In this document: positions 4,817 through 52,225 of the stretch, piece after piece
How the letters are laid out: each line of letters opens with the position of its first letter
Numbering within the stretch: the stretch's first letter is position 1
Source: an uncultured Acidimicrobiales bacterium
Lineage (GTDB): Bacteria > Actinomycetota > Acidimicrobiia > Acidimicrobiales > Hopanoidiivorantaceae
Length of the DNA: 64,000 bases
Assembly (NCBI GenBank): GCA_958295755.1
Contig: OY282367.1
Location: forward strand, 204,294 to 268,293
Direction of reading: 5' to 3'
Notes under the pieces: model-generated
Seen by the model: only the letters and a program-made list of their open reading frames with translations
Told to the model about the DNA's origin: nothing
The model's database searches: none
Made by a program: the position numbers and the translations under genes

Positions 4817-4868
4817 CGCCGCAATATTCCCCAGCGACATTCCGCCGCAATACTTCCCAGTAACATTC
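4817..4868. repeat. Imperfect 26-bp tandem duplication just after the paralog 1 stop
   Basis: cgccgcaatattccccagcgacattc / cgccgcaatacttcccagtaacattc. Confidence 0.75.
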
Positions 4869-4929
4869 TGCTATGATTTAATTGGATACACAATGAGACC
4901 ACGATACCTCTACCGATTTGTTGCGCCTA

Positions 4930-4976
4930 CTGATGCGACTTAAGACTTCCCCTACTATATGTTGCGGGGGGGGGGG
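4930..4976 (+). promoter_or_regulatory. Putative promoter of the 6865-aa gene, with a G11 tract at the predicted transcript start
   Basis: TACTAT (-10-like) at 4953-4958, CTGATG 17 bp upstream, G11 at 4966-4976. Confidence 0.45.
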
Positions 4977-5029
4977 CGGATGGTTTCTGACACTGAAAAT
5001 ACTGACCGCACCAAGTGAAGGGAGCTTGT

Positions 5030-8000
5030 ATGAATTCAAAGAGTTTACAGACGGGGGGGGGTTATCGAAAAATGGTTAGGGACGCAGAAGATGAGCGAGA
5101 TACAATCGCGCGGAATTCTAGAATACTGGGAATAGGACAGGGGCGGCAGAGCAGTAGTGTTCGCAGGTGGTTTATCGCTTTCATAGCTACTTCACTGTTT
5201 GCTACTGTGTTGTTTGCCGCTTCGGTATTTGCACATCCGGTTGCCGCGCAAAATGGTGGGGAGGATCAGGTGCAGGATGGACAGACTCAGGAGGGGGATA
5301 GTCAGAGTGGGGACGGTCAGGAGGGTGGTGAGTCTCCGGCGACTACGACTACCACGGTGGCACCAACTACTACCACTACTTCGACCACAGTGCCGGCGTC
5401 TACCACCACCACTTCGACTACGGTGGCACCGTCTACCACTACCACGGTGCCTGTTTTGGATCCCGAGGTTGTTGAGCCTGTTGAGCCTGAGGTTGAGCAG
5501 CAGCAAGCCCAGAACCGTGAGATTACTTTTAATGCTCCGTCTGGTTTGTCGGTAGGTGCTGGGGGGAGTTTAGTGATTGATGCTTCTAGTTATGCTAGCG
5601 ATCCGGGTTTTGTGATTTCTTGCGCTGATGCTACTGGTGTGGATGGTACTAAAGTCACCGTTTCTCGTGATGGTTGTTCTTTCACGGTTAGGTCGTCTGT
5701 GTCGGCTGTTGCGGGCGATACCACTTTTTCAACAGTGTTGAGTTCTTCTAGGACTGGCAGCACTCCCGTTACCGCGACTTTTACTGTTGCTATTACTGCT
5801 TTGTCAGTTGTTGCGGGGCGGAATTTGGTGTTCATGGCTGCGGGTTATCCTTCTGAGGGTACTCCCACAGCTTGCACTCAAGCTTCAGGTGTAGACACCT
5901 CTAAGATCAGTGTTAATCGCAATCCTTTTAATCATCCTCGAGGTGGTTGTACCTTTAGAGTTGCTGCGTATTCATCATCAATAGGGGCGACTACTTTTAC
6001 TTCGGTGCTGACTTTTTCTGGCGGTGGCAACCGCACTGTAACATTTCCTATCAACATTACCCCGACTTCAAGTATTACCTTTGTGGCACCTTTAGGCGGG
6101 TTGAGTGTTCCTGTGGGACAGTCCAAGAATTTCTCTGTTTCTAGCTATGCCAGAGACGGCACATACACAATTTCCTGTCGTTTTGCTGATTCCAGCCGCC
6201 ATGCTTTGATCGCCTCAGTTGCCAATACCGGCTGTGATTTCACTGTGCGAGCTGGCAATGTTGCTGGTTCGGCGACGCTGTCTGTTATCTATAACTCATC
6301 AGGCGGCCATGAGGTAACTGGTGTGATCCCAATAACGGTGGCATCTACTTCTAGTTTGACTTTCACCGCGCCTAGTGCTTTGAATGTGCGCATAGGTCAG
6401 ACAATAGGCATCAACGCCCGGCTATATGCTTCTGATGGTGCTAACGCGGTTGCTTGTGATGTAGCAACTGGGGTAGTCGGTGGGATTACTGTTGAGTCTC
6501 CGGTGGGTTGTTCTTATCGGGTAACAGCAGGCAACACTAGGGGGACAGCTTCCTTCGTTGTGCCTTACGCCTCAGCTAGCGGTAGCACACTTAATGGTCG
6601 CATTGACATAAACATTTTGGGTGCTCTTTCTGATATTGATTTCACCGCACCAATAGGTTTGACAGTAGCTTCAAGGGGTGTTATCACGATAGATGCCTCA
6701 GCTTATGCTTCTAGTGCGTACAGTGTTTCTTGTGGCACTATCACACAATCTCGTGGGCATTCTGTAGGCATTGTTCAAGATGGTTGTTCTTTTGAGGTAA
6801 CCGCTGGAACTCCAATGCCCCTTGGTAGTGAGGGGTTCGCTTTTATCACGGTGCCTTATACCAACTCTGAGGGCGGTTCTCAAAGCGGTGAAATCTCACT
6901 AGTAATAGGGGCAGTTCCCACACTGTCAGCTGCGGGTTGTACTGATGGTACTTTTGTAGATCTAACTGCTAACCCCAGAGTTACTGGTGCTAACAACGAT
7001 CTGGTTGAAGATTGCCAAGCATTGGTAGCAGCCCAGAATCTGTGGGCTGGGGTTGCTGCTAATGGTGATTTGCGTTCTCCCTATTTCATTAGAAGCTGGG
7101 GCACAGGCACACCCGAACAGCAAAAGATTGCTAGTTGGGAAGGCGTAACAGTCACATCCGGGCGTGTAACAGAGCTAGAAATAGATAACACGGGCGAAGA
7201 AGACGGCATCTCAGGCACCATCCCCACACAGATCGGCAACCTCTCCGCACTTACTATCCTTGATATCTCTTATAACCAGCTCTCAGGTGCTATCCCGACC
7301 CAGATCGGCACCCTAACAGCACTTACTTCTTTGGATCTTTCCGGCAATAGCCTCACGGGTGCTATCCCGACTCAAATCGGCTCCCTCACTGCGCTTACTT
7401 CTTTGGATCTTTCTGCTAATCAGCTCTCAGGTGCTATCCCGACCCAGATCGGTTCTCTCACTTCTCTAACACAGCTCTCATTGGGTAGTAACCAGCTCAC
7501 CGGGGCTATCCCCACCCAGATCGGTTCGCTTAGTTCTCTCGTTCAGCTTTATCTAGGCGGCAACATGCTTACTGGCTCTGTGCCCACCCAGATAGGTGCT
7601 ATAACTACTCTCACTACCCTTAGCATCTGCTTCAACCAGCTCACCGAAGCCCTCCCGGTAGCCCTGCGAACAGGCGTCACCCTACTTGGCTACCCCAGAG
7701 CTGACGGCTTTGACCCTATAGGCTGTCAGTCCAATATAGTTTTCACAGCCCCTACCAACCTCCGGGTTGCTCGCAACTCCACGCTAGAGATTAATGCTTT
7801 GAGTCACATTACTGCGAGCAGTATTTTCACCGTTTCTTGTGGCGATGCTACGGGGGTGGATGCTACCAAATTCACAGCTACCCGAACTACTACTGGTAAT
7901 GGTTGTACCTTCACTGTAGATCCAGTCGATACTCTCAGTAGTGGCGATCTGGGCGATGTGACTTTTACTGTGCCGTTTACTTCTACCGGTGGTACTACAG

Positions 8001-11000
8001 CTAGTGGCACATTCACTGTGAATATTGGCCCTGATTCTGATATCGTTTTTGCCGTTCCTGAAAGGGTGCTTGTGGAGTCTTGGGATCCGGCGAGGGTAGA
8101 TTTGTCGCGGTATGCTTCTGACGGCCCTCATGATATTTCTTGTTCTGGGATTACTAGGGGTCATCAGGTAAGTTCTGCTAGCGGGAGGTTTTCAGTTTCT
8201 GGTTGTGTAGTGTCTTTTTACCCCATTCCCGACCTCACCCACAACCACAACCGACGAACTAGTGTTTGGGTTACTTATACCTCATCTGGTGGTGATACAC
8301 ATAGAGCAGAAGTTAATTTCTATTCGAAGTCTTTACATCTTACTAGTATCATTTTCACTGCTCCCAGTCCTGCTCCGGCTGTTACTGCTGGCCAAAGTGT
8401 TGTTGTGGATGCCTCAGCTTGGGTAGAAGATTTTTTTGGTTACTCTGTGTTTTGTGAAAATGCTACCAATATAGACAGCAACAAGCTTACTTCTGTCACT
8501 CGCACACGAGATTGCCTCTATGAGATCACAGCCGATAGTCTTGCCTCGGGAACAGCTACTTTTACCGTGCCTTACTATTCTACTGGCCTACATAACAGGA
8601 ACACACCAGAGACTCGCAATGCGGTGATTTCTGTTACTGTCAATGCTGGTTCTAACTTTGTATATACCGCTCCTTCAGATTTGGTAGTACCAGTGAGCAC
8701 GAACACACAGAGCCAGAGCATCACAGTTGATGCTTCTGAGTGGGCACAAGATGGCAGTTACGACATAACCTGCGCGAACGCTAACACTATCTCATCTAAC
8801 CTAGCTTCAGTTGTTCGCAATGGTGATACTTGCTCATTTACCATCACTTCTGGGACCACAGAAGGTGCTGCGTCTTTTACTGTGCCATACAGCTCTAGCG
8901 GTAGCACTGGTAGCACTAACGGGGTTGTCTCACTCACCGTCGGCCCTGCTTCTGCTATTGTCTTCACAGCTCCTACTGGCCTTCAGGTTAACACAGGTGA
9001 TATCCGCTTCATTGATGTCTCTGTTTATGCCACCGACGGCCCTTACAAAATCACCTGCGCTGACCAATCCAGCTCCAGCTTTCAAAATATTTTATTGCGC
9101 CATAATAACTGTTCATTCGCAGTCCGACCTCCGGGAGCAGGTAACCACTGGTTTGAAGTGCCTTATACCTCTTCTGGCGGAGATACACACACGGGCCGAA
9201 TAACTTTCACAGCAGGGGGCGCAACCAGTGTTTCTGCTACCATCCCATCGGGTCTTACCGTCGCAAGAGGTAGTTCTGTAACCCTAGATGCTTCCAGTTT
9301 TTCTTCCAACGGCACCTGTGCAGGAGCTGCCTATATCTCCCCGCTACTTACTTCTGTTACCCGCCCAGACATAGCCAATAATCCTTGCACATACACAGTT
9401 ACAGCAGGCAACACACTAGGCACAGCCACCTTTAGCATCGTCTATAGATCAACCGGCCAAAGTCTTCATACATCCAGAGTCAGCTACTCCGTCACTACCC
9501 CCTCTACTATCGTCTACAACGCGCCTTCTGGTTTGTCGGTGGATGCTGGGGGCAGTTTGGTGGTTGATATGTCTGATTATGCTAGCGACGGGAGCAACAC
9601 GATTTCTTGCGCTGATGCTACTGGTGTGGATAATCAAAAGGTCACCGTTACTCGTGATGGGTGTGATTTCGCGGTTAGGGCGTCTGTTTCGGCTGCTACT
9701 GGTGTAACAACATTTTCTACTGTTTTGTCTTCTTCTGGTGGCGGTGCTGGGCTTCCTGTGACTGTTAGTGTTGCAATTACTGCTTTGTCGGTTGCTGCTG
9801 GGCGGAGTTTGGGGTTCGTGGCTGCGGGTTATCCTTCTGAGGGTGCGGCGACAGCTTGTGGGGCTGCTGCAGGTGTGGATGCCTCTAAGATCACAGTTGT
9901 ACAAAGTACTCCTGAGCACGAAACTAATCGTCCTGCTGCTACTACTGGCACGGATTGTTTCTTTACTGTTACTGCTCTTAGTTCAGCAGCTAGTGGGGTG
10001 ACTACTTTTACTTCGGAGTTGACTTTTTCTGGTGGTAGCCGAACTGTGACATTCAGTGTTGATATTGGCGCGGCTTCAAGTATTACATTTACGGCCCCTC
10101 CGGGCGGGTTGAGTATCCCTGCGGGTCAGTTAAGGAATTTCAGTGTTGCTAGTTACGCCACTGATGAGGATTACACAATTTCTTGTGGTTTTGCCGACTC
10201 TTCTCGCCATAGCTTGATTGCTTCGGTGGCTAATACTAGCTGTGATTTCACAGTGCGCGCGGGTAGTTCTGCTGGTGCGGCGACGCTGTCTGTTATTTAT
10301 TACTCTTCTGGTGGCGATGAGGTTACTGGTGTGATCCCTATCACGGTGACATCTACTTCTAGTTTGACTTTCACCGCACCTAGTGCTTTGAATGTGCGCA
10401 TAGGCCAGACAATAGGCATCAACGCTCGGCTATACGCCTCAGATGGTGCTAACGCGGTTGCTTGTGATGTAGCAACTGGGGTAACGGGTGGGATTACTGT
10501 TCAATCTCCGGTGGGTTGTTCATATCGGGTAACAGCAGGCAACACGGTTGGTACAGCTAGTTTTGTTGTGCCTTACACCTCAAGTAGTGGCCGCACACTT
10601 AATGGTCGCATTGATATCAATATTGTGGATACCAGCTCAAATATTGACTTCACCGCACCAACAGGTTTGACAGTTGCTGCTAGTGGTGTTATCAACATAG
10701 ATGCAGGTGAGTATGTGTCTGACGGGCCTTTTAGTATTTCTTGTGGCACTCCGTTGAGCGTGTCTGCGCTTATTTCTAGTATCAATGAAGATGGCGGCTG
10801 TTCTTATGAGGTAACCGTTGGAGCTACAGCAGGCACGGCTACCTTTACAGTGCCATATACCTCTTCGGGGGGCGATACCCACAATGGTGTGATCTCACTA
10901 GTCATTGGTGCTGTCCCAACATTGGCTGCTGCGGGTTGTACTGATGGTACTTTTGTGGATCTCACAGATAACCCCAGAGTTACTGGTGCTAACAACGATC

Positions 11001-14000
11001 TAGTAGAAGATTGCCAGGCATTGGTTGCAGCCCAGAATCTGTGGGCTGGGGTTGCTGCTAATGGTGATTTGCGTTCTCCGTATTTCATTCGTAGCTGGGG
11101 CACAGGCACACCCGAACAGCAAAAAGTTGCCAACTGGGAAGGCGTAACAGTCACCTCCGGGCGTGTAACAGAGCTAGCAATAGACAATATCGGTGAAGAA
11201 GACGGCATCTCAGGTGCTATCCCCACCGAGATCGGCAACCTTACCGCTCTTACTAGCCTTGATATCTCTTATAACCAGCTAAGCGGTTCTATCCCGACCC
11301 AGATCGGTTCTCTAACAGCGCTTACTTCTTTGGATCTTTCCGGCAATAGCCTCACCGGTGCTATCCCGACTCAGATCGGTTCCCTTACGGCTCTTACTTC
11401 TCTAGATCTTTCTGGTAACCAACTCTCAGGTGCTATCCCGACTCAGATCGGTTCGCTTACTTCTCTAACCCAGCTCTCCTTAGGCAGCAACCAGCTCACC
11501 GGGGCTATCCCGACACAGCTAGGTTCGCTTAGTTCTCTCGTTCAGCTTTATCTAGGCGGTAACCGCCTCACTGGTTCTGTGCCCAACCAGATAGGTGCTA
11601 TAACTACTCTCACTACCCTCAGCATCTGCCTCAACCAGCTCACCGGGGATCTTCCTTCAGCTTTGCGAACAGGTGTTACTTTGCTCGGCTATCCAACTGC
11701 TGATGGTTATACCCCTGTTGCTTGTCAGACTGCGGTCTCCAACATCCTCTATACCGCACCTACTGGTCTGAAGGTCGCCACTAACCGCACGATAGTTATC
11801 AATGCCCTAGATCATGCCACAGACGGCAGTTATACCGTTACTTGCGCGGACGCGACCAACATAGACACCACAGAGCTGCAGTCAGTTACGCGTGATAGTT
11901 CTGGCGATGGCTGCTCGTTTACTATCACACCCAAAGCCGTTCAGGGTACTGCTACCTTTACTGTGCCACTTACCTCCTCTGGTGGCGATACCGAAAATGC
12001 GGTGTTTACTATAGAAGTTGGCCCGGCTTCTACTGTTACCTATAGTGCGCCGTCTGGGTTGTTCGTGGCCCGTAATCGCACCTTAGACATTGATGCTTCT
12101 GGTTATGCGTCTGATTCTGGTAGCGGCTATGTGGTCTCTTGTTCAGATGCTACGAGTTTGCATTCCAGGCTTACCTCGGTTACCCGTGCTGCTAATAGCT
12201 GTTCTTATACTGTCACACCTTCAGCTACTGCCACTTCGGGTAATGCTACATTTACGGTTACTTTCACCTCAGATGGCGGCCATTCTGTAGATGGGGTGAT
12301 AACTGTTGAGATCGGCACAGATTCAACTATTACCTATAACGCACCAGATGACCTCTCGGTTGCTGCTGGTAGGAGTTTGGTGTTTGATGCTTCGGGCTAT
12401 GTTTCTGACGGAAGCCATACCATCACTTGTGCTGACGCTACCGGGACGCTACCCTCTGGTGTTTCTGTAGCTCGCAATGGTTGTACCTTTACTGTTACAG
12501 CAACTAGCTCAGCTGCTACAGGTCCGGCTGCTTTTGTTGTGCCGTTTTCATCTACAGGCGGCCATAGCTTAGATGCGACTTTCAGTGTTGATGTTGGAGC
12601 GGTTTCAGATATTACCTTTACGGCCCCTGTAGGTGGGGTGAGTATTCCTGTGGGGAATTTCAGGAATTTCAGTGTTGCTAGCTACGCCACTGACGGCGAT
12701 TACACAATTTCTTGTCGCTTCGCTGACGCTTCTCGCCATGCTTTGATTGCCTCAGTTGCCAATACTGGCTGTGATTTCACTGTGCGAGCTGGCAATGTCG
12801 CTGGCGCGGCGACGCTGTCTGTTATCTATAACTCATCAGGCGGCACTGAAGTAACTGGTGTAATCCCTATCACGGTGGCGTCTACTTCTAGTTTGACTTT
12901 CACCGCACCCAGTGCTTTGAATGTGCGCATAGGCCAGACGATAGGCATCAACGCTCGGCTTTATGCTTCAGATGGTGCTAACGCGGTTGCTTGTGATGTA
13001 GCTACTGGGGTGACTGGTGGGATTACTGTTGAGTCTCCGGTGGGTTGTTCTTATCGGGTAACAGCAGGCAACACGGTTGGTGCGGCTAGCTTTGTTGTGC
13101 CATATACCTCTGCTAGTGGCAGAACGCTAAGTGGCCGTATTGATATAAACATTTTGGGTGCTCTTTCTGATATTGACTTCACCGCACCAATAGGACTAAA
13201 TGTAGCCCCAAGGGGTGTTATCACGATAGATGCCTCAGCTTATGCTTCTAGTGCATATAGTGTTTCTTGTGGCACTCCGTTGAGCGTGGATGAGCGTCTT
13301 ATTTCTAGCATCAGTGAAGATGGCGATTGTTCTTATGAGGTAACCGTAGGCAATGTTGAGCAAAGGGCTAGCTTCACAGTGCCTTATACCAACTCTGAGG
13401 GCGGCTCTCAAAGCGGTGTGATCACAATAGCTATTGGTGTGGTCACACTAGGTGGTGCTTCTATCCCAGCCCTGCCAGCTACAGGATGTACCGATGGCAC
13501 TTTTGTAGATCTAACTGCTAACCCCAGAGTTACTGGTGCTAACAACGATCTAGTTGAAGATTGCCAAGCATTGGTAGCAGCCCAGAATCTGTGGGCTGGG
13601 GTTGCTGCTAATGGTGATTTGCGTTCTACGTATTTCATTAGAAGCTGGGGCACAGGCACCCCCGATCAGCGAAAGATTGATAACTGGGAAGGTGTAACAG
13701 TTACCTCCGGGCGTGTAACAGAGCTAGAAATAGACAACACGGGCGAAGAAGACGGCATCTCAGGTTCTATCCCCACACAGATCGGCAACCTCACCGCTCT
13801 CACCATCCTTGATATCTCCTACAACCAGCTCTCAGGTGCTATCCCCACACAAATCGGCACCCTAACAGCACTCACAGATCTGGATCTTTCCGGCAATAGC
13901 CTCACGGGTGCTATCCCGACTCAGATTGGCTCTCTCACCGCGCTCACCACCCTAGACCTTTCTGGTAACCAGCTCTCAGGTGCTATCCCCACCCAGATCG

Positions 14001-17000
14001 GTTCGCTTACTTCTCTGACACAGCTCTACTTGGGTAGTAACCTGCTCACCGGTGCTATTCCCAGCCAGCTTGGCTCGCTTACTTCTCTAACTGATCTTTA
14101 CCTAGGCGGTAACCGCTTCACTGGTTCTGTGCCCACCCAGATAGGTGCTATCACCACCCTTACTACCCTCAGCATCTGCCTCAACCAGCTCACCGGGGAT
14201 CTTCCCTCAGCTTTGCGAACAGGTGTTACGCTCTTAGGCTACCCAACTGCTGACGGCTATACCCCGATTGCTTGTCAGACCTCCGCCATTGTGTTTGATC
14301 CTGCTGATGATTTGTTTGTGACTTCTGGTGTGGCTAAGGTTTTCAGTGTTGGGGCTTATGTCTCTGACGATAGCAATACCATTACTTGTGGCGATGCTAC
14401 TAGTATTTCAAGTAATCTTGCTTCTGTCACTCGTGCTTCTGGGACTTGTGATTTCACTGTTACTTCTAATGCCTCGATCCAAGGCGATGCTAGCTTTGAT
14501 GTGCCCTTCACTTCTTCTGGTGGAAGTACTTTAAGTGGCACGGTTTCGTTCAAGATTTTTAGACTCTTAGTAACAAGTGGATGTACTGATGGTAGTTTTG
14601 TAGATCTCACAGCTAATCCCAGAGTTGCTGGTGCTGATAACGATTTGGTGGAAGATTGCCAGGCTTTGGTAGCCGCTCAGAGATCGTGGGCTAGCGAGGC
14701 GGATAATTTTGCTATTTCTGCGAGCCATCCGATCCGCACTTGGGGCTATGACTCAGGGGGCACAGCCACGAAAATAAGCACTTGGAATGGCGTGAATGTC
14801 TCAGGTGGCCGTGTTACTGGTCTCAGCGTAGTTGATATTTCAGGTTTGGACATGGCTGGTAGTATCCCTGCTGAGCTGGGCAATCTTTCCGCGCTTGTTA
14901 CTTTGGATCTTTCTGGTAATGTTCTTTCTGGTAGTATCCCTGCTGATCTGGGCGATCTTTCTAACCTTGAGAGGCTAGACCTCTCTGAGAATGTTCTTTC
15001 TGGTAGTATTCCTGCTGGGCTGGCTAGCTTGGCTCCTTCCACAGGGAGTTTGACCTATCTCGGCCTCTGCTACAACTATCTCACAGGTAATGTGCCAACA
15101 GCTCTGCGCCCGATGTTTGCCGCTGCCGTTCCTGTATCGCCCGTATATCAGCCTGTGGGTTGCCAAAACAGCCGCACACCAAGCAATACCGCTATTGCTT
15201 TGCTCTCTGCTACTGGTTGCACTGATGGCACTTTCGTAAACACCACTACTAACCCCCGGGTGAGCGGCCCTAATAACGATTTGGTAGAAGACTGCCAAGC
15301 TTTAGTAGCAATTCAAAACCACTGGGCACAAATAACCGCCAATGACAACCTCCCAACCACGTTTAGTCCTCATGGTCTACGAACCTGGGGCACAGGCGCA
15401 ACACCGGCTGAAAAGCTGATTGGTTCTTGGTTGGGCGTAACTGTTAGTCGTAGCGGGCGGGTTACGGAGTTGGGCTTTGGGACTTCTTCGCGCTCTAGAA
15501 TTTATGGTTCTATTCCTGCTGAGATCGGCAACCTCACCGCACTCACCGAACTACGGCTCAGTAACAACCGGCTTTCTGGTGCTATTCCTTCGGAGATCGG
15601 CAACCTCACCAGACTCATCTTCCTACGGCTCAGTAACAACCGGCTTTCTGGTGCTATTCCTTCGGAGATCGGCAACCTCACCAGACTCACCCAACTATGG
15701 CTCGATCGCAACAGGCTTTCTGGTACTATTCCCACTGAGATCGGCAACCTCACCTCACTCACCCGCCTAGGCCTCGGTGGCAACAGTCTTTCTGGTGCTA
15801 TTCCCACTGAGATCGGCAACCTCACCAGACTCACAGTCCTAGGCCTCTGGGGCAACAGTCTTTCTGGTGCTATTCCCACTGAGATCGGCAACCTCACCTC
15901 ACTCACCAGCCTATCGCTCAATGGCAACAGTCTTTCTGGTGCTATTCCTGTTCAGATCCGCAATCTGAGATCGCTCGACTTCCTATATCTCGATCTTAAC
16001 CGGCTTTCTGGTGCTATTCCTGCTCAGATCGGCAACCTCACCAGCCTCACCGACCTACGGCTCAATGGCAACAGGCTTTCTGGTACTATTCCTGCTGAGA
16101 TCGGCAACCTCACCTCACTCCGCACCCTACGGCTCGAAAACAACCTCCTCACTGGTTCTGTGCCCACCGCGATAGGTACTATCAGAAATCTTCGTCAGCT
16201 CGGTATCTGCAACAACCAGCTCACCGGTGACCTGCCCGTAGCACTGAGAACAGGCGTCACCCTCACCGACTATCCCACAGAGGATGGTTATACCCCGATT
16301 GCTTGTCAGAACGCAGTTTCTAATATTGTTGTTAGTCCGCCTTCTGCTATTGCTGTGGCTGCTAGCCGTTCTGTTACGGTTGATTTCGCTAGTTATGCTT
16401 CTGATGGGGATTACACCGTTTCTTGTGCCACTCCCACAACTTCTTCGTCTCTGATTAGTATTGGTGCTCCTAGTGGTTGTAGTGTTGCTATCACTGCTGG
16501 TGCTAGCACAGGTACAGCTACTGTTTCTGTGGTGTTTACTTCTACCGGTGGTGCTACCGCTACGGGCTCGTTTACCTTTGATGTGGGGGCTGCTTCTAAC
16601 ATCGTGTTTACCGCGCCGTCTGGTTTGAAGGTTGCTACTAACCGCACGAGAGTAATCAATGCGCTAGATCACGCCACAGACGGCGGCTACACGATTACTT
16701 GTGGCACTGCGACTGCTATAGACACCACAGAGCTAAACACGGTTGTGCGTGATAGCTCTGGCGATGGCTGCTCCTTTACTATCACACCAAAGGCTGTTCA
16801 AGGCACTGCTAGCTTTACTGTGCCTTTGACTTCTGATGGTGGCGATACCGAAAATGCGGTATTTTCTATAGAAGTCGGCCCCGCATCAACCTTTGCCTAC
16901 AGTCCGCCGACTGGTTTGAGTGTCGCTCGTAACCGCACTTTGGTTATTGATGCGCTGGATCAGATTACTGAAGATGTTGCCTATACGGTGTCTTGTAGTG

Positions 17001-20000: not shown

Positions 20001-23000
20001 CGTCTTTGATTACTATTGGCAGCCCAACTGGTTGTAGTGTTTTGATTACTTCTGGTGCTGGCACTGGTCAAGCTACTGTTTCTGTGGCGTTTACTTCTGA
20101 TGGTGGTGCTACGGCTGCGGGTTCGTTTACTTTTGATGTGGGTGCTGCTTCTAATATCGTGTTCAGTGCGCCATCTGGTTTGAAGGTTGGTACTAACCGC
20201 ACGAGAGTGATCAATGTGTTGGATTATGCTTCTGATGGCGGCTACACGATTACCTGTGGCGCTGCGACTGCTATAGACACCACAGAGCTAATGTCGGTTA
20301 CGCGTGATAGCTCTGGCGATGGCTGTTCGTTTACTATCACACCGAAGGCTGTTACGGGTCCTGCTGGCTTTACTGTGCCACTTACTTCTGATGGTGGCGA
20401 TACCGAAAATGCGGTATTTTCTATTGAGGTTGGCCCGGCTTCTACTGTTACTTATACCGCACCTACTGGGTTGTCGGTGGGGCGTAATCGTCCCTTAAGC
20501 ATTGATGCTTCTGGTTATGTATCTGAAGCTGGTAGCGGCTATGTGATTTCATGTTCTGATGCTGCTTCTGTTCATTCCAGGCTTACCTCAGTTACCCGCA
20601 GTGGCTGTTCTTATACCATCACACCAGATACAGCTGCCACAGCAGGTAGTGCTACATTTACTGTTACCTTCACCTCCGATGGTGGCCATTCTGTAGATGG
20701 GACGATAGCTGTTACCATCGGCCCTGACAGCACTATTACATATCTGGCACCGTCTGGGTTGGTGATAGGGCGTAACCTGACCCTTGAGATTGATGTGACA
20801 GATTATGCTACTGAGGCGAATCCGTCTAGCCACGACATTTCTTGTGGTGATGCTTCTGGTGTGGATAACACCAGACTAGTTGGGGTTACCCACACTGGTT
20901 CTAGTTGTACCTTCACTGTTGATCCGATTGATACTTTGGCTAGTGGTTTGCAGGGTGCCACTACTTTCACTGTGCCGGTTTCATCTACTGGCGGTCATAG
21001 TATTTCTGCTTCTTTCACGGTAAATATTGGCCCGGATTCAAGCATTACGGTTAGTCCGCCTTCTTCTATTGCTGTGGCTGCTAGCCGTTCCCGCACGGTT
21101 GATTTCTCAAGTTATGCTACTGATGCTGGCGGCTACACGATTTCTTGTGCTACTCCTACTACTTCGTCGTCTTTGATTACTATTGGTGCTCCTAGTGGTT
21201 GTAGTGTTGCGATTACTTCTGGTGCTAGTATGGGCACAGCTACTGTTTCTGTGGTGTTTACTTCTTCTGGTGGTGCTACTGCTACGGGTTCGTTTAGCTT
21301 TGATGTGGGTGCTGCTTCTAGTATTTCCTTCACTGCGCCTACTGGTCTGAAGGTTGCTACTAACCGCATGAGGGTTATCAATGTCTTAGATTATGCTTCT
21401 GATGGTGGCTACACGATTACTTGTGGTGCTGCGACTGCTGTAGATACCACAGAGCTAAACACGGTTACGCGTATCACTTCTGGCGATGGTTGTTCGTTTA
21501 CTGTCAGGCCGAAGGCTGTTCAGGGTGCTGCTAGCTTTACTGTGCCTTTGACTTCTGATGGTGGCGATACTGAAAATGCTGTGTTTGCTATTGAGGTTGG
21601 CCCGGCTTCAACTCTCAGATATTCTCCGCTGTCTGGTTTGAGTGTCGCTCGTAACCGCACCCTCAGCATTGATGCTATGGCTCAGATTACTGAAGATGCT
21701 GCCTATACGGTTACTTGTGCTGATGCTTCAGGTGTAGATACTTCTAAGTTCACAGCTACCAGAACTACTTCTGGTGATGGTTGTACTTTCACGGTGGATC
21801 CTGTAGATACTCTCACTCCAAGTAATCAGGGTGCTGTGACTTTCACGGTTACCTTTACTTCTAGTGCGGGCACAGGCACTGGTTCTAGCATTGTTGGTAC
21901 TTTTAGTGTAAATATCGGCCCTGATTCAACTATCACCTACACCGCACCGACTGGGTTGAAGGTCGGGCGTAATCGCACTTTGGTGATAGACGCTTTAGAT
22001 CACATAACTGAGAGCAGTGCCTACACAGTGTCGTGTGGTGATGCTACTGGTGTGGATAACACCAAGCTAACTAGTGTTACTCGTTCTAGTTGTACCTTCA
22101 CGGTTGATCCGATTGATAATCTGGCTAGTGGCTCACAGGGTGATACTACCTTTACTGTGCCTCTCACATCAACTGGTGGTCACACCCTAGATGCGACCTT
22201 TACTGTAAATGTTGGCCCTGATTCAACTATTAGCTATACCGCACCCACTGGGCTGTTAGTGGGGCGTAATCGCACACTAGTGATTGCTGCTTCTGCCTAT
22301 GTGTCTGAGACTGCTGGTAGTGGCTATGTGATTTCTTGTTCAGATGCGGCGAGTTTGCATTCCAGGCTTACCACTGTTGTTAGAGCTGCTAATAGCTGTA
22401 CCTATACCATCACGCCTTATGTTTTTGCTTCAGCAGGTGATGCTACATTCGCTATTACTTTCACTTCCGATGGTGGCCATACCCGAAGTGAGACGATAAC
22501 TGTTGGGATCGGCCCTGATAGCACTATTGGCTATAGCGCACCCACGCTGGGGGTTGGGCGTAATCGTACTTTGGTGATTGATGTGTTAGAGCACATAACT
22601 GAAAATGCTGCCTACACGGTGTCTTGTGGGGATGCTACAGGAGTAGATAACACCAAGTTGACTTCGGTTTCTCATACGGGTTCTAGTTGTACCTTCACTG
22701 TTGATCCGATTGATGCTCTCGCTAGCGGCTCGCAGGGTGATACTAGCTTTACTGTGCCTCTCACCTCAACTGGCGGTCACACCCGAGATGCGACCTTTAC
22801 TGTAAATGTTGGCCCTGATTCAACTCTTACCTATAGCGCGCCGACGTTGAAGGTGGGGCGGAATCGTACTTTTGTGATTAATGTGCTAGATCACATCACC
22901 GAAGATAGTGCCTATGTGGTCTCGTGTGGTGATGCTACGAGTGTGGATACTACTAGGTTGGTTTCGGTTTCTCATACGGGTTCTAGTTGTACTTTCACTG

Positions 23001-25612: not shown

Positions 25613-25629
25613 AATCCTAGATCGCATAG

Positions 25630-25710
25630 CGATTATATAAACAGAATATATATAATGTATTTTATATAATGTCATGTATGATAGTGGTTGTGCTAGCATA
25701 TAAAAGTAGT
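25630..25710 (+). promoter_or_regulatory. AT-rich promoter region upstream of paralog 3 with duplicated TATATAATGT
   Basis: atatataatgtattttatataatgtcat contains two TATAAT hexamers; strongly AT-rich relative to its flanks. Confidence 0.5.
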
Positions 25711-25771
25711 CTGGTAACTGCCTTGTTTAGTATTAGCCACATCCGTACCCTAGAAGGAAAGACATATCAAA

Positions 25772-28700
25772 ATGACACACAGATTCGAACGCTCAAGCTC
25801 AAAGAGCTTGCATGATGTCAAAGAGTTTACAGGCGGGGGGGGGTCATCGAAAATGGTTAGGGACGCAGAAGGTGAGCGAGATACAGTCGCGCGGGATTCT
25901 AGAATGCCGGGAATAGGACAGGGGCGGCAGAGTAGTAGTGTTCGCAGGGGGTTGGTCGCTTTCATAGCTACTGCGCTGTTTGCTACGGCTTTGTTTGCTG
26001 CTCTAGCGCAACCGGTTGCTGCGCAGCGTGAGATTACTTTTAATGCGCCTTCTGGTTTGACGGTGGTTGCTGGGCAGAGTATAGTGATTGATGCTTCTGA
26101 TTATGCTAGTGATCCGGGTTTTGTGATTTCTTGTGCTAATCCTACAGGTGTGGATAGTAGTAAGGTGTGGGTTACTCGTGCTTCTGGGACTTGTGATTTC
26201 ACGGTTAGAGCGTCTGTGTCAGCTGTTGCGGGAAATACTACTTTTTCAACTGTGTTGAGTTCTTCTAGGACTGGTAGCACTACTCTTACCGCGACTTTTA
26301 CTGTTACTATTACTCCTATGTCGGTTCCTGCGGGGGGGCAGTTAACGTTCTTGATGCAGGGTCAACCTGCTTGGGGTGCTGTGGGGTTCGGTTGTAGTAC
26401 TGCTCCTACAGGTGTAGATGCTTCTAGGTATTCTGTCACAAGGCCATCTGGTTGTTTCCGCAGAATTACAGTTGAGAGTTCGGCTACTACGGGGCCTGCT
26501 TCGTTTACTGTGCGGCTCAGCTATGCAAACTCTGGTGGTCAGAGTTGGGCAACGACTTTCAATTTCGTTATTACCCCGGCTTCTAACATTATATTTACGG
26601 CACCTCCAGGCGGGTTGACTATCCCCGTAGGCCAGTTCAGGAATTTTGATGTTTCTAGCTACGCTACTGACGGCGACTACACAATTTCTTGTCGTTTTTC
26701 TGCCGCTTCTCGCCATAGCCTGATTGCTTCTGTTGCTAATACTGGCTGTGATTTCACGGTGCGTGCTGGTAGGACTGCCGGTGCGGCAACGCTTAGTGTT
26801 ATCTACAACTCTGATAATGGCGGTTTTTGGCCTGTCGGTGAGCTTACTGCTGAGATCCCTATAACGGTGGCAGATCCTTCTAGTTTGACTTTCACCGCTC
26901 CTAGTGCTTTGAATGTGCGTGTAGGTCAGACAATAGGCATCAACGCGCGGCTTTATGCTTCTGATGGTGCTAACGCGGTTGCTTGTGATGTAGCAACTGG
27001 GATAGTCGGCGGGATCACTGTTAAATCTCCCGGGGACACTTTTGGACATCCCGTGGACAGTGGTAAAACTCTGACTCTGGGGGGTTGTTCTTATCGGGTA
27101 ACAGCAGGAAACACTGTAGGGACAGCTTCCTTTGTTGTGCCCTATGTCTCATCTAGTGGCCGCACGCTAAATGGTCGTATAAACATCAATATTTTGTCTG
27201 CTGCTCCTACTATTTTCTTCACCGCACCAACAGGTCTGTCGGTTGCTGCTGGCGGTGTTATTACTATAGATGCTTCAGGTTATGCTCCAAGTGCATATAG
27301 TGTTTCTTGTGGCACTATTACGCAGTCTCACGCGCTTATTGCTAGCATTTTTGAAGAAGGTTGTTCTATTGAGCTAACCGTAGGCAACACAGCGGGAACG
27401 GCTACCTTCACGGTGCCCTACACCAACGCTGAGGGCGGTGCCCTTGATGGTGTGATTTCTCTGGTTATAGGATCTGTGCCCGCCTTGGCGGTTGCTGGGT
27501 GTACTGATGGTACTTTTGTAGATACCACTGCTAACCCCAGAGTCGCAGGTGCTAATAACGATCTCGTAGAAGATTGCCAAGCATTGGTAGCAGCCCAGAA
27601 CCTATGGGCCGGAGTTGCTGCTAATGGTGAGCTGCGTTCTCCTTATTTCATTAGAAGCTGGGGCACAGGAACACCCGAACAACAAAAGATAGATAGCTGG
27701 GAAGGTGTCACAGTTACCTCCGGGCGTGTAACAGCGTTAGAAATAGACAATACGGGTGAAGAAGACGGCATCTCAGGTACTATTCCTACCGAGCTGGGTG
27801 ACCTCACGGCTTTGACTACTTTGGATCTTTCTTCTCACCAGATCTCAGGTACTATCCCCACTCAGCTAGGTTCTCTTACGGCTCTTACTGCGCTAGATCT
27901 TTCTGGTAACCAGCTCACCGGTGCTATTCCTTCACAGATCGGTTCTCTTGCGGGTCTTACTTTTTTGGATCTTTCTGGTAACCAGCTCAGCGGTGCTATT
28001 CCTTCACAGATCGGTTCTCTTACGGCTCTCACTTCTTTGTATCTTTCTTCTAATGAGCTCACCGGGGCTATCCCGATACAGATCGGTTCTCTTGCGGGTC
28101 TTACTGCTTTGAGTCTTTCCGGTAATCAGCTCAGCGGTGCTATTCCTTCACAGATCGGTTCTCTTGCGGCTCTTACTTTTTTGGATCTTTCCGGTAATCA
28201 GCTCAGCGGTGCTATTCTTTCACAGATCGTTTCTCTTACGGATCTCACTTCTTTGAATCTTTCTTCTAACGAGCTCACCGGTGCTATTCCGACACAGATC
28301 GGTTCTCTTACGGATCTCACTTCTTTGGATCTTTCCGGTAACGAGCTCACCGGTGCTATTCCTTCACAGATCGGTTCTCTTACGGATCTCACTTCTTTGG
28401 ATCTTTCCGGTAACGAGCTCAGCGGTGCTATTCCTTCACAGATAGGTTCTCTTACGGCTCTTACTATTTTGGATCTTTCTTCTAACGAGCTCAGCGGTGC
28501 TATTCCTTCACAGATAGGTTCTCTTACGGCTCTCACTTCTTTGGATCTTTCTTCTAACGAGCTCACCTGGGCTATCCCCTTCCAGCTTGGTTCTCTTACG
28601 GCTCTCACTTCTTTGGATCTTTCTTCTAACGATCTCATCGGTACTATTCCTTCACAGCTAGGTTCTCTGAACTCTCTTGTTGCTCTTGATCTTAGTAGCA

Positions 28701-29587
28701 ACAGATTGATTGGGTCTGTTCCCGCAGCAATAGGTTTCATCACCACCCTTAGCACCTTCAGTATCTGCGATAACCAGCTTACTGGGGCACTTCCCACAAG
28801 TCTGCGTACAGGTGTTACCTTGCTTGGTTATCCCACCGCCGACGGCTATACCCCCATTGCCTGTCAGAACCCGGTAGAACCACAGCCGGAAATCCCACAG
28901 CCGGAAACTCCACAGCCGACATCTCCACAGCCGACATCTCCACAGCCATTCACCCCAACCCCCACGCCTGCGCCTTCTGGTGGAGAGGATGCTACTGGTG
29001 ATGTAGCCGTTCCTAGGTGGAATACTTTGACCGTTTCTGGTGACGGTATCACTGCTAGTGAGATCAGATCTACACTTGGAATTCCTGCCAACTATGGCAT
29101 CTACACTTGGAATGAACGCACACAAACATGGACTAGAGTAACCTCCTCCTCACAGAGTCTGTCCGCAGGTACGCTTGTCTCCTTCCGCACAGTCGCTGCT
29201 CCTGACCCAGACCTGCTAGATGGCTTGAATCTAGGTAGCGGTTCAGAAACCGTTAGTCTAAATCGAGGCTGGAATCTCATTAACGTTCCCAGTGTTGTCA
29301 CCCTTACGGAAGACAGCACTTTCCTCATTGATGACTCCCTCATAGACTGCGATAACCTCCAAGGCATCGTAGCTGTAGCTAGCTATAGTGCCAGTAATCG
29401 AAGATGGTCACTCTGGTTACCATGTAACCCACGAACTCAAGCCCGTCTCACCACAGGGCGAAACGCTCCATACCTAGTATTCACCAGAATTGCCCCAGGC
29501 GACACCACCTATTTCTACAACAATGCCAGACAACCTATAGACATTATCTGGGACACTGAAACCCAAACCTACCAAGTTGCTAACTAA
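25772..29587 (+). CDS. Secreted Ig-like/LRR surface protein, paralog 3 (5 two-Cys repeats, 14 LRRs, PQP linker, conserved C-terminal domain)
   Basis: AGAAGGA upstream of ATG 25772 (alternative ATG 25853); G9 at 25835-25843; signal peptide VRRGLVAFIATALFATALFAALAQPVAA|Q. Confidence 0.9.
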   Translation: MTHRFERSSSKSLHDVKEFTGGGGSSKMVRDAEGERDTVARDSRMPGIGQGRQSSSVRRGLVAFIATALFATALFAALAQPVAAQREITFNAPSGLTVVAGQSIVIDASDYASDPGFVISCANPTGVDSSKVWVTRASGTCDFTVRASVSAVAGNTTFSTVLSSSRTGSTTLTATFTVTITPMSVPAGGQLTFLMQGQPAWGAVGFGCSTAPTGVDASRYSVTRPSGCFRRITVESSATTGPASFTVRLSYANSGGQSWATTFNFVITPASNIIFTAPPGGLTIPVGQFRNFDVSSYATDGDYTISCRFSAASRHSLIASVANTGCDFTVRAGRTAGAATLSVIYNSDNGGFWPVGELTAEIPITVADPSSLTFTAPSALNVRVGQTIGINARLYASDGANAVACDVATGIVGGITVKSPGDTFGHPVDSGKTLTLGGCSYRVTAGNTVGTASFVVPYVSSSGRTLNGRININILSAAPTIFFTAPTGLSVAAGGVITIDASGYAPSAYSVSCGTITQSHALIASIFEEGCSIELTVGNTAGTATFTVPYTNAEGGALDGVISLVIGSVPALAVAGCTDGTFVDTTANPRVAGANNDLVEDCQALVAAQNLWAGVAANGELRSPYFIRSWGTGTPEQQKIDSWEGVTVTSGRVTALEIDNTGEEDGISGTIPTELGDLTALTTLDLSSHQISGTIPTQLGSLTALTALDLSGNQLTGAIPSQIGSLAGLTFLDLSGNQLSGAIPSQIGSLTALTSLYLSSNELTGAIPIQIGSLAGLTALSLSGNQLSGAIPSQIGSLAALTFLDLSGNQLSGAILSQIVSLTDLTSLNLSSNELTGAIPTQIGSLTDLTSLDLSGNELTGAIPSQIGSLTDLTSLDLSGNELSGAIPSQIGSLTALTILDLSSNELSGAIPSQIGSLTALTSLDLSSNELTWAIPFQLGSLTALTSLDLSSNDLIGTIPSQLGSLNSLVALDLSSNRLIGSVPAAIGFITTLSTFSICDNQLTGALPTSLRTGVTLLGYPTADGYTPIACQNPVEPQPEIPQPETPQPTSPQPTSPQPFTPTPTPAPSGGEDATGDVAVPRWNTLTVSGDGITASEIRSTLGIPANYGIYTWNERTQTWTRVTSSSQSLSAGTLVSFRTVAAPDPDLLDGLNLGSGSETVSLNRGWNLINVPSVVTLTEDSTFLIDDSLIDCDNLQGIVAVASYSASNRRWSLWLPCNPRTQARLTTGRNAPYLVFTRIAPGDTTYFYNNARQPIDIIWDTETQTYQVAN

Positions 29588-29682
29588 AGCTCTTGGTAAG
29601 CTAATAACATATAAAAATGGTTTGGTAACTGCCTTGTTTAGTATCAGCCACATCCGTACCCCAGAAGGAAAGACATATCAAA

Positions 29683-32600
29683 ATGACACACAGATTCGAA
29701 AGCTCAAGCTCAAAGAGCTTGCATGAACTCAAAGAATTGACAGACGGGGGGGGGTTATCGAAAATGGTTAGGGACGCAGAAGGTGAGCGAGATACAGTCG
29801 CGCGGAATTCTAGAATGCCGGTGAGGGGAATAGGACAGGGGCGACAGGGAAGTAGTGTTCGCAGTAGTGTTCGCAGGGGGTTTGTTGCTTTCATAGCTAC
29901 TGCGTTGCTTGCTACGGCTTTGTTTGCTACTTCGGCGTCGAATCCAGCTGTCGCACAGACTCCTGTGATTACTTTTAATGCGCCTTCTGGTTTGACGGTG
30001 GTTGCTGGGCAGAGTATAGTGATTGATGCTTCTGCTCATGCTAGTGATGTAGGTTTTGTGATTTCTTGTGCTGATCCTACAGGTGTGGATGGTCAAAAGG
30101 TGTGGGTTACTCGTGAGGGTTGTTCCTTCACGGTTAGGGCGTCAGTATCAGCTGTTGCGGGTGATACTACTTTTTCTACAGTGTTGAGTTCTTCTAGGAG
30201 TGGTAGCACTACTCTTACCGCGACTTTTACTGTTGCTATTAGTCCTTTTTCGGTTGTTGTGGGGACACATTTTCCGTTCGTGCTTGCGGGTTATCCTTCT
30301 GAGGGTGCTGTGACGGCTTGTAGTCAACCTCCTCAAGGTGTAGATAGTGGTAGGTATGCTGTTCGCAATATCCCCGGTACCCCGTGTACCTACAGAATTG
30401 AAGTTCAGAGTTCGGCTACTACGGGTTTGACTTCGTTTTCTTCGTCACTCACTTTTTCTGGTGGTACCCGTACTGTGACTTTCACTTTCAATATTGTTGC
30501 GCGTGGGATTACTTTTAATGCGCCTTCTGGTTTGACGGTGGTTGCTGGGCAGAGTATAGTGATTGATGCTTCTGATTATGCTAGTGATCCGGGTTCTGTG
30601 ATTTCTTGTGCTGATCCTACAGGTGTGGATGATCAAAAGGTGTGGGTTACTCGTGCTTCTGGGACTTGTGATTTCACGGTTAGAGCGTCTGTGTCAGCTG
30701 CTGCGGGAGATACTACTTTTTCGACTGTGTTGAGTTCTCCTAGGTTTACTCTTACCGCGACTTTTACTGTTGCTATTACTCCTATGTCGGTTGCTGCGGG
30801 GCGGCATTTAGTATTTGTGGTTGGGGGTTATCCTTCTGAGGGTACTCCCACAGCTTGTGCTGCTGCTTCAGGTGTAGATACTAATAAGATCACAGTTGCT
30901 CGCAATGGTTGTATTTTTACTGTTACTGCTTCTAGTTCAGCAGCAAGTGGGGTGACTACTTTTACTTCGGCGGTGACTTTTTCTGGCGGCAACCGCACTG
31001 TAACATTTCCTATCAACATTACCCCGGCTTCAGCTATTACATTTTCGGCACCTGCGGGCGGGTTGAGTATTCCTGTAGGGAATTTCAGGAATTTTGATGT
31101 TTCTAGCTACGCTACTGACGGCGACCACACAATTTCTTGTCGTTTTGCCGCCTCCTCTCGCCATAGCTTGATTGCTTCTGTTGCTAATACTGGCTGTGAT
31201 TTCACAGTGCGAGCTGGCAGGACTGCCGGTGCGGCAACGCTGAGTGTTATCTATAACTCATCAGGTGGCACTGAGGTAACTGGTGTGATTCCTATCACGG
31301 TGGCAGCTACTTCTAGTTTGACATTCACTGCTCCTAGTGCTTTTAATGTGCGTGTAGGTCAGACAATAGGCATCAACGCGCGGCTTTACGCTTCTGATGG
31401 TGCTAACGCGGTTGCTTGTGATGTAGCAACTGGGGTAACAGGCGGGATCACTGTTGAATCTCCGGTGGGTTGTTCTTATAAGGTAACAGCAGGAAACACT
31501 GTAGGGACAGCTAGTTTTGTTGTGCCCTATGCCTCAAGTAGCGGCCGCACGCTAAATGGTCGTATAAACATCAATATTTTGCCTCCTAGTCCTACTATTT
31601 TCTTCACCGCACCAACAGGTCTGTCGGTTGCTCCTGGCGGTGTTATTACTATAGATGCTTCAGCCTATGCTCAAAGTGCATATAGTGTTTCTTGTGGCAC
31701 TATTACGCAGTCTCACGCGCTTATTGCTACTATTTTTGAAGAAGGTTGTTCTATTCAGCTAACCGTAGGCAACACAGGTGGCACAGCTACCTTTGAGGTG
31801 CCCTACACCAACGCTGAGGGCGGTGCCCTTGATGGTGTGATTTCTCTAAGAATAGGCTCAATCCCAGCCTTGTCGATTGCTGGGTGTACTAATGGTACTT
31901 TTGTAGATGTCACTGCTAACCCCAGAGTCGCAGGTGCTAATAACGATCTCGTAGAAGATTGTTATGCATTGGTTGCGACCCGGAACCTATGGGCCTCCCA
32001 AGCCGCTAATCACAATCTGCGTTCTTCTTATTTCATTCGAACTTGGGGTACAGGCACTCCCTCTCAGCAAAAGATCGATAGGTGGGAAGGTGTAACAGTT
32101 ACCGCAGGGCGCGTAACAGGGTTGGAAATAGACAATACGGGTGAAGAAGACGGCATCTCAGGTTTTATTCCTACTCAGCTTGGTAATCTCAGGGCTTTGA
32201 CTACTTTGGATCTTTCTTCTCACCAGCTCTCAGGTGCTATTCCTACTCAGCTTGGTAATCTCAGGGCTTTGACTACTTTGGATCTTTCTGGTAACGAGCT
32301 CACCTGGGCTATCCCTTCACAGCTAGGTTCTCTTACTGGTCTAACTTCTTTGGATCTTTCTTCTAATGATCTCATCGGTGTTATTCCTTCACAGCTTGGT
32401 TCTCTTAGCTCTCTTACTGATCTTTATCTTGGCGGTAACAGATTGATTGGGTTTGTTCCCACAGCAATAGGTACCATCACCACCCTTAGCACCTTCAGTA
32501 TCTGCGATAACCAGCTCACTGGGGCACTTCCCACAAGTCTGCGTACAGGTGTTACCTTGCTTGGTTATCCCACCGCCGACGGCTATACCCCCATTGCCTG

Positions 32601-51063: not shown

Positions 51064-51132
51064 TTAGATCTCCAGTAGCTCCATATCTAGCCAGTAGCTC
51101 CGCTTTCCCCTCCGTTCGTGATTCAGGGTGTG

Positions 51133-51285
51133 TCAAGCCCCGAAGATGTGATAGTGATCTGGGGCATCCCATAGGAATTCAGGGATTGGGATACCATCAA
51201 TTGTTGGAGGCTCCCTGTCTTGTTCGTTATCTTGCTTGTTCCCCTTGTGCTCAGATGACTGGGGTTCTTCTGGTGCTTTGGTCAT
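51133..51285 (-). CDS. 50-aa peptide, copy 1 (MTKAPEEPQSSEHKGNKQDNEQDREPPTIDGIPIPEFLWDAPDHYHIFGA)
   Basis: AGGAGG 6 nt upstream of the ATG, overlapping the TGA of the upstream 3-TM gene; reading frame conserved in four copies. Confidence 0.8.
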   Translation of the reverse strand: MTKAPEEPQSSEHKGNKQDNEQDREPPTIDGIPIPEFLWDAPDHYHIFGA

Positions 51286-51296
51286 GGCACGCCTCC

Positions 51297-51755: not shown

Positions 51756-51882
51756 ACGAAGAACCTTAGAGCAGGATGACTGCAGAACCCGCTCTGGTTT
51801 TTCGAGGCGGAAAGACATGGCTGGGAGATGGTTCGTGAATTCTGGAGTCCAGCCGCTAATAGCGAATCGAGTGGGTCTCTAC

Positions 51883-51920
51883 CCCAAGCCCGCCCCCGCA
51901 TCCCCGTAGCCTCGGGGTAG
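51883..51920 (+). pseudogene. nuoF 3'-end copy (38 bp), start of a ~340-bp duplication of 51026-51345
   Basis: cccaagcccgcccccgcatccccgtagcctcggggtag followed by the same trailer ttagatctccagtagctcc. Confidence 0.9.
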
Positions 51921-52160: not shown

Positions 52161-52225
52161 GGCACGCCTCCTCATGAATGAATTATAGTTGCAGCTGCTA
52201 GGAAGAGCAAGGCAAGCACCTGATT

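Follow-up and report, generated by a model that had tools for sequence, protein, structure and literature searches.

Poly-G runs in the leaders of giant surface-protein genes of an uncultured Acidimicrobiales bacterium: likely frameshift switches within a genus-wide set of contingency loci

We analysed a stretch of 64,000 nucleotides (nt), here called the window, from the genome of an uncultured Acidimicrobiales bacterium (assembly GCA_958295755.1, contig OY282367.1, positions 204,294 to 268,293 of the forward strand), focusing on four G runs at the 5' ends of an array of surface-protein genes. The source genome (G000) is a single contig of 2.29 Mb with 52% G+C and 89.5% completeness, and its HemB, with a best match of 73%, is nearest to Acidimicrobiales genomes. 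The array, all on the + strand, comprises the 3' part of paralog 1 (1..4808; a 14,266-amino-acid (aa) open reading frame (ORF) that starts at genome position 166301, with a G10 run three bases before its ATG), paralog 2 (5030..25612; 6860 aa, with a signal-peptide-like N terminus, immunoglobulin (Ig)-like repeats, leucine-rich repeat (LRR) blocks and a common C-terminal domain), paralog 3 (25772..29587; an LRR plus Ig-like repeat surface protein of 1271 aa) and paralog 4 (29683..33324; 1213 aa). The runs, also on the + strand, are a G11 at 4966..4976 and three G9 at 5053..5061 (codons 8-11 of paralog 2), 25835..25843 (paralog 3) and 29746..29754 (paralog 4), and the window holds no other G or C run of at least 8. 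A first-pass annotation of the sequence had listed these four runs with their contexts, which the sequence bears out. The three G9 and the G11 belong to a genus-wide system of contingency loci; within the genome's poly-G/C contingency set, the G9 runs are likely to be reversible frameshift switches, translated from an upstream ATG.

Paralog 2 is open from ATG 5030 through its G9, followed by an A5 run, and the open frames of paralogs 3 and 4 begin at ATG 25772 and ATG 29683, with an A4 run after the G9. The segment before the A-run is read in paralogs 3 and 4 in a frame that differs from that of paralog 2, the A5 versus A4 difference restores the downstream frame, and all three genes are in frame at present, as the first-pass annotation had described. 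It had also read paralog 2 through the G9 from ATG 5030 with AAGGGAG as ribosome-binding site, which agrees with the open frame of 6860 aa and with a well-spaced Shine-Dalgarno-like motif (5018..5024, −7.9 kcal/mol, register spacing of 4-5 nt to ATG 5030). The gain or loss of a single G closes each of these frames: with G8 or G10, paralog 2 yields 34 or 16 aa from ATG 5030, paralog 3 yields 47 or 29 aa from ATG 25772, and paralog 4 yields 46 or 29 aa from ATG 29683, while a G12 in any of the three leaders leaves the frame open again from the upstream starts. The leaders of paralogs 2, 3 and 4 are 82-90% identical and thus recent duplicates, so the three G9 runs are not independent and count as roughly one observation.

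The leader of paralog 2 is chimeric, being of the paralog 1 type with the G11 up to about 5015 and of the paralog 3/4 type with the G9 from there on. The old paralog-1-type start at 4980 is left as a remnant upstream ORF (4980..5018) that now stops after 12 codons, its stop overlapping the Shine-Dalgarno-like motif of ATG 5030. The G11, homologous to the G10 of paralog 1, is non-coding for paralog 2 and cannot shift its frame. It had been described as lying just after a −10 box; the run and the −10-like hexamer TACTAT (4953..4958) both exist, but the hexamer is not kept in the homologous paralog 1 leader and is absent from the promoter-scan list. Two further candidates were dropped: read-through of the G11 from ATG 4933, because the corresponding ATG of paralog 1 runs straight into a stop, and ribosomal frameshifting at the A4/A5 run, where inspection gave no slippery heptamer. 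RNA folding of the three leaders gave z-scores of −1.18, 0.42 and 1.18 and no conserved structure.

The choice of start codon is where the frameshift interpretation meets its main competitor, in which the G9 is the ribosome-binding site for a start (MVRD) lying 9-10 nt downstream, namely ATG 5072 (10 nt past the G9, within the A5 element at 5068..5074), ATG 25853 or ATG 29764; the run would then slip with little or partial effect, leaving leaky or defused switches. The first-pass annotation had named this alternative itself, and it is correct in that the G9 and the bases after it have the strongest anti-Shine-Dalgarno pairing of the tested starts (−14.6 to −15.3 kcal/mol against the full 16S tail, −10.9 for the core, nearly independent of run length), exceeding essentially all of 500 reference starts. 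An in-frame ATG often follows sense-G runs by 3-10 nt (paralog 1, the 398404 family, locus L022 of the genus relative G001), and no protein sequence is conserved in the segment before the A-run, whose reading frame differs between paralog 2 and paralogs 3/4. At 9-10 nt, however, the spacing lies outside the 4-7 nt peak of register spacing for the Shine-Dalgarno motifs of this genome, these two distances occurring at 12 and 5 of the 500 starts over a background of about 2-6, and GGGGG is present in the Shine-Dalgarno zone of only 2 reference starts versus 87 for AGGA. The paralog at 782044 has RRDA rather than VRDA after its G10, with no in-frame ATG there (an in-frame GTG stands 16 nt past the run), and in the genus relative G003 sense-G runs lie within the signal peptide and are not followed by an ATG. 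Together with the fact that the base of a run tracks the replichore rather than the transcript (see below), these observations make it seem unlikely to us that the MVRD start is the principal one.

Support for the upstream start comes in part from the sequence AAAATGACNCAC around the MTH start (Shine-Dalgarno-like AGAAGGA plus ATG 25772, 25752..25774 on the + strand), a context common to paralogs 3, 4 and 0, which has four occurrences in the genome, three of them at the starts of these genes. Paralog 0, directly upstream of paralog 1 at genome position 164468, has no MVRD segment; its leader contains an interrupted G5-T-G3, which its ORF crosses in the same frame, and it is a possible locked-ON copy. 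The support that this context and paralog 0 lend to the upstream start is modest. In the high-depth population of the sequenced sample (see below) the leader is 9 nt shorter between a conserved CATG and the run (a figure derived from loose contig ends and assuming no further upstream indel), which keeps the upstream MTH frame, and the extra A of paralog 2 brings ATG 5030 into frame; each of these coincidences has a one-in-three chance of arising by accident. Several observations, in addition to the strong pairing of the G9, weigh on the other side. MAFFT does not line up the start of paralog 0 with the MTH start, and the scores of a pairwise comparison, which beat those of 2000 out of 2000 random segments, do so by only 0.1 for paralog 3 and in another register. 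The MTH motif is weaker (−6.2 kcal/mol), and its distance of 11 nt likewise misses the 4-7 nt peak. Another in-frame ATG follows the run by 60 nt in paralogs 3 and 4, and the upstream starts imply signal peptides of 73-91 aa.

A transcriptional role was considered as well, with the G9 as part of the spacer of a sigma-70-type promoter: slippage would alter the −35/−10 spacing and hence transcription, and translation would start further downstream. Each paralog does have one match spanning its G9, TTTACA-18-AAAAAT (5044-5073) for paralog 2, TTTACA-17-GAAAAT (25826-25854) for paralog 3 and the stronger TTGACA-17-GAAAAT (29737..29765, + strand) for paralog 4, and a perfect TTGACA-17-TATAAT precedes another family gene in the genome. 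One match per region is nevertheless the chance level (shuffle means of 0.4, 1.1 and 0.3), the three are duplicates of one another, and the first T of the −10 hexamer is missing. Only 4 of 124 run-by-strand tests across the genome match, three of them being these, and the −35 hexamer is absent from the leader of the high-depth population. In paralog 2, moreover, the interval from such a transcription start site to the hydrophobic region contains no ATG, GTG or TTG in frame. We therefore regard a promoter-spacer function of the G9 runs as very improbable.

The reading of the G9 runs as frameshift switches draws much of its strength from the genome as a whole. The source genome carries 62 G/C runs of at least 9, versus about 18 expected from base composition, and 7 runs of 8 versus about 52 expected, while A/T runs reach 9 in 4 cases. 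Once a CRISPR array is masked, runs of length 6 to 11 number 400, 33, 7, 32, 17 and 8, respectively, with a dip at 8 followed by a bump at 9-11. We surveyed 31 genomes, 4 from the genus itself (G000 and its relatives G001, G002 and G003) and 27 from outside it. Exact G9 runs outnumber exact G8 runs 32 to 7 in G000, 32 to 11 in G001 and 39 to 8 in G003, the ratio in G002 being 5 to 7; the 27 outside genomes have between 0 and 9 G9 runs, with G9 exceeding G8 in three of them at counts of 3 or fewer, and the inversion is thus confined to three of the four genus genomes.

The placement of the runs follows gene class and gene end. Defining the family by its C-terminal domain and "near start" as within −150/+250 nt of the open-frame start, 14 of 19 family genes have a run near the start, versus 26 of 1534 other ORFs. 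Sorted by hand, 44 of the 62 runs lie in or before genes of three classes: LRR or RCC1 surface proteins (21), genes that we take to be pilin-like from a prepilin motif, without a Pfam match (9), and restriction-modification genes (14). The last class includes two type ISP enzymes, HsdS, HsdM, an N6/N4 methyltransferase (C14), a C5 methyltransferase (C14), a DUF1156 gene and an N6 methyltransferase. The other 18 runs fall outside these classes, among them runs that separate convergent genes or sit in a CRISPR spacer. In four family members (genome positions 782522, 417872, 548083 and 603864) a run puts the gene out of frame, and no start ahead of the mature part rescues it; the run at 782522 parts a signal peptide from 19,990 codons. 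A similar mix of in-frame and out-of-frame genes is seen in G001 and G003, with tandem ATG-plus-run units and runs within the signal peptide, and across G000, G001 and G003 the runs stand at non-homologous leader positions; 3 of 20 G001 regions examined have no run of at least 8. A murL-like epimerase gene (NF041275, below cut-off) is split at a G13 in G000 (1995805) and at a G12 in G001, whereas its G002 ortholog has no run and an open frame. A search for leader peptides in G001-G004 returned weak matches only. The proposal of the first-pass annotation that runs of this length are slipped-strand contingency loci is, as a class assignment, strongly supported by the genome, genus and read evidence, and the genome-wide count of such runs that it had called for is given by the figures above.

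NucS was detected in the source genome, and the search for MutS_V returned no match in it. According to the accessible parts of two reports, NucS leaves small indels unrepaired in Mycobacterium smegmatis (PMC11551767, PMC7015689). A further explanation would make the runs by-products of strand-biased mutation without indel repair, tolerated in flexible leaders, and the frameshifts decay or assembly errors. The near-total leading-strand polarity of the runs described below does point to a mutational component, 18 of the 62 runs belong to no obvious contingency class, and both single-contig genomes could hold homopolymer errors. Mutation by itself is harder to reconcile with the concentration of runs at the 5' ends of one family and with their recurrence at non-homologous leader positions in three genomes, tandem ATG-plus-run units included. 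The murL-like gene, moreover, has gained its G12-13 in G000 and G001 over the open ortholog of G002, and assembly error cannot make 62 runs at such places. We consider this explanation improbable. As a point of comparison, an enrichment of poly(A)/poly(T) tracts at gene 5' ends is general in prokaryotes, judging from the accessible portion of PMC2831843.

The runs are strongly polarized with respect to replication. With dnaA at 2.035 Mb and its antipode taken as terminus, because the estimates from third-position skew and from gene orientation conflict (1.16 and 0.73 Mb), G lies on the leading strand in 59 of the 62 runs of at least 9, and in 57 or 60 under alternative choices of terminus, whereas 61-65% of G5-G6 runs have G on that strand. 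The switch of polarity in G001 falls between 943,914 and 1,003,566, a stretch that includes dnaA (964,653); a hand count found 54 of 55 listed runs in agreement, and 15 further 9-mer matches, outside that list, are all on the reverse strand. The polarity counts are inflated by paralogs. Given the leading-strand rule, it depends on gene orientation whether a transcript contains the run as G or as C, as in a small LRR gene that has a sense G9 in G000 and a sense C9/C10 in its 53%-identical relative in G001. Many of the runs are C on the sense strand and cannot act as Shine-Dalgarno sites, and since the sense-strand base is set by gene orientation, ribosome binding cannot be the common purpose of the runs. 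A genus-wide replication-strand rule can be formulated from this, in which a C run in the mRNA would be a hard frameshift switch, a G run may double as a Shine-Dalgarno site and so give a leaky, graded switch, and inversion of a gene, in a family whose LRR/Ig-repeat proteins reach about 20,000 aa, would change the kind of switch; we offer it tentatively and hold it to be doubtful in this full form. Literature searches, with most subscription journals outside their coverage, returned nothing that describes a leading-strand rule for runs of this kind, and the accessible parts of PMC5135748 and PMC4085013 do not mention a strand bias of tracts. The strand rule is a testable handle on how slippage strand asymmetry shapes contingency loci where NucS replaces MutS.

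Evidence at the population level is available from four sequencing runs (X1-X4) of one sample in one study, in which the region is present as assembled contigs; the search for runs containing the region listed these four and no RNA run. The sample holds two populations, one of low depth that is identical to the window in the paralog 2 leader and one of high depth with mosaic paralogs and many repeat-unit joints, the mosaics suggesting recombination within the gene array. A low-depth contig (5-13x) that matches 4830-5213 without substitutions measures 492, 491, 491 and 490 nt in X1 to X4, respectively, and the single-base loss in X4 falls in the depth bin 4956-4969, which holds the first bases of the G11. 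For the paralog 1 leader, the contig measures 742 nt in all three runs that list it, and the paralog-3/4-type leader contig of the high-depth population is 268 nt long in all four. The loss in X4 and the constancy of the 268-nt contig make the G11 look unstable and the G9 stable at the majority level. These data count against switching at the G9 in that none of the four runs has a loss there (contigs drop rare variants) and the additional base in X1 is not placeable within its contig. Sequencing error in homopolymers, at a depth of 5-13x in a single sample, could also account for the length differences. Contigs over 25400-30300 are dominated by paralog mosaics and do not separate the runs of paralogs 3 and 4. 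Of the G8/G9/G10 length variants that the first-pass annotation had in mind, then, variation is found in one leader contig, but the loss that can be placed is at the G11 and none is at the G9. Its broader claim of independent ON/OFF switching for each gene fares likewise: the class of loci is supported, but a clean switch at each G9 is only likely, and no G9 variant could be placed.

On our preferred reading, the frameshift switch, translation would start at the upstream ATG and pass through the G9, where the replicative polymerase may slip by one base, and the resulting indel would presumably be left unrepaired, as the mycobacterial NucS data suggest. The frame would then be lost before the hydrophobic region of the signal peptide, reducing a protein of 1,200-6,900 aa to a peptide of about 15-48 aa, and the descendants of the slipped cell would be without that surface protein until a reverse slip, assuming that the change is reversible. 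Each gene would switch on its own, with some leak from the MVRD start possible, and the proteins may have a role in host or phage contact. For paralog 2 the G11 would add another site of tuning, one that is not translated, likely acting via the transcription start or leader translation.

The proteins subject to this proposed switching combine a signal peptide (judged from sequence reading alone), Ig-like stalk repeats and LRR domains that score above the Pfam cut-offs. The repeat unit of about 95 aa is a predicted beta-sandwich (pLDDT 92) whose best Foldseek rows are Rib, PKD and SraP at a TM of about 0.55-0.63, with no row at E ≤ 0.001. The 189-aa C-terminal domain (29018..29584 on the + strand in paralog 3) is common to the family and present in 3 of the 31 genomes, all from the genus; Pfam and NCBIfam gave no match to it, and Foldseek against the PDB none at E ≤ 0.001 (model pLDDT 69, pTM 0.43). 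It has two conserved cysteines, occurs in 19 genes coding for 550-20,000 aa, and is, on these sequence features, a candidate uncharacterised anchor or sorting domain. Stalked adhesins with Rib, PKD or cadherin-like Ig repeats, such as Rib-long and SraP, resemble the family in the beta-sandwich predicted for its repeat and differ from it in that its repeat has no row at this threshold and its C-terminal domain matches nothing tested. The label "adhesin" in the first-pass annotation is consistent with the LRR domains and the predicted Ig-like repeat, but with neither the repeat fold nor the C-terminal domain significantly matched, it applies by analogy only. One member (G000 782044-842505, + strand) has an open frame of about 20,100 codons that is cut off from its signal peptide at the G10 at 782522, with a second G10 at 782044.

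In G001, loci L013, L009 and L016 stack units of about 62-65 nt in tandem before one signal peptide, and every unit brings an ATG and a C9-C12 run. In G000, a C14 lies early in the N6/N4 methyltransferase gene at 1720563 (which we take to be type III Mod-like from its layout) and another in the C5 methyltransferase gene at 1973659, a G9 lies in the middle of HsdS after the first specificity domain (1133738), and a G10 lies in HsdM (1139818), all of which are candidates for phase-variable methylation. Type ISP restriction-modification genes (G000 282251-285903 and 1094620-1095048; G001 L025) have a C-terminal tail with 3-4 successive G9-G13 runs that alter the C-terminal frame and vary in length among copies and genomes. 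At G000 410779 and 413176 a C10 occupies precisely the interval from a strong Shine-Dalgarno motif (AAGGAGGA) to a GTG start, so that run length would set their spacing. A CRISPR-like array at G000 50400-53600 has a period of about 72 nt with a C7 in the repeat in 44 copies, and one spacer with a G10 at 52107. Beyond the surface-protein genes, 33586-63883 of the window is a housekeeping region with genes for heme synthesis, the cytochrome bc complex and the first six NADH dehydrogenase subunits, then a DNA methylase gene (52437-53807), ORFs without assignment, a diaminopimelate-decarboxylase-family gene, ArgRS, a zinc dehydrogenase and AhcY. Rfam gave no matches in the window.

The mechanism itself, phase variation by simple sequence repeats, is well known from host-adapted bacteria; the lineage, which has been little studied, and the protein family are new. 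A poly-G run lies in the signal-peptide region of pilC in Neisseria, and Campylobacter jejuni has G9-G11 contingency loci. The likeness to these systems extends to surface genes with a run of 9-11 close to their 5' end, mixed frames, and methyltransferase and hsdS targets, whereas the present bacterium is uncultured, belongs to a different phylum and uses an unrelated protein family. Non-coding G runs also tune expression, as in the 5'-UTR (untranslated region) G-repeat of Helicobacter pylori tlpB, which is read by the small RNA RepG, and in the promoter-spacer runs of Neisseria opc and porA; these are possible models for the G11 and for a promoter-spacer role, respectively.

Closer relatives offer further comparisons, taken here from the accessible parts of the reports. 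In Bifidobacterium breve UCC2003, the nearest precedent, two sortase-pilus loci (bbr_0113 and bbr_1889) have an intragenic G10-G11 early in the gene where slippage joins or separates frames, the G11 being far more heterogeneous than the G10 (60% G12, 37% G11) (PMC9187656). The likeness lies in an actinobacterium with a G tract early in a surface-structure gene and in a G11 that is less stable, as the window G11 looks to be compared to the G9; the difference lies in two measured pilus loci there versus 62 runs here, known from sequence, on giant LRR/Ig-repeat, pilin-like and restriction-modification genes, with an in-frame start right after the G9. Mycobacterium tuberculosis has a frameshift run in glpK and a G7 in the 5'-UTR of espR, at the transcript start, that changes translation (PMC11898584), and thus combines NucS-type repair with coding frameshift runs and a non-coding G run, a precedent for the G11. 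Its runs, in the accessible text, are of 7 nt and in metabolic and regulatory genes, whereas those of G000 are of 9-14 nt, with a dip at 8, and are concentrated in surface and restriction-modification genes. Our literature searches, with the coverage stated above, returned no report of phase variation in Acidimicrobiia or sponge symbionts. A host-recognition role has been proposed for LRR proteins of sponge-associated Acidimicrobiia (PMC11706023); the word "phase" is absent from the accessible text of that paper.

What is new here is the giant LRR/Ig family, the scale of 62 loci, the restriction to a genus, the leading-strand rule and the ambiguity of sense-G runs as possible Shine-Dalgarno sites. 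The finding extends a pathogen-style phase-variation repertoire of surface proteins, pilin-like proteins, methyltransferases and hsdS to an uncultured Acidimicrobiales genus. If the genes do flip, gene counts from assembled genomes would overestimate the repertoire that a cell presents, and giant genes that look "broken" would be OFF states rather than pseudogenes. Turning off a gene of 20-60 kb would, if this is true, save the cell much translation.

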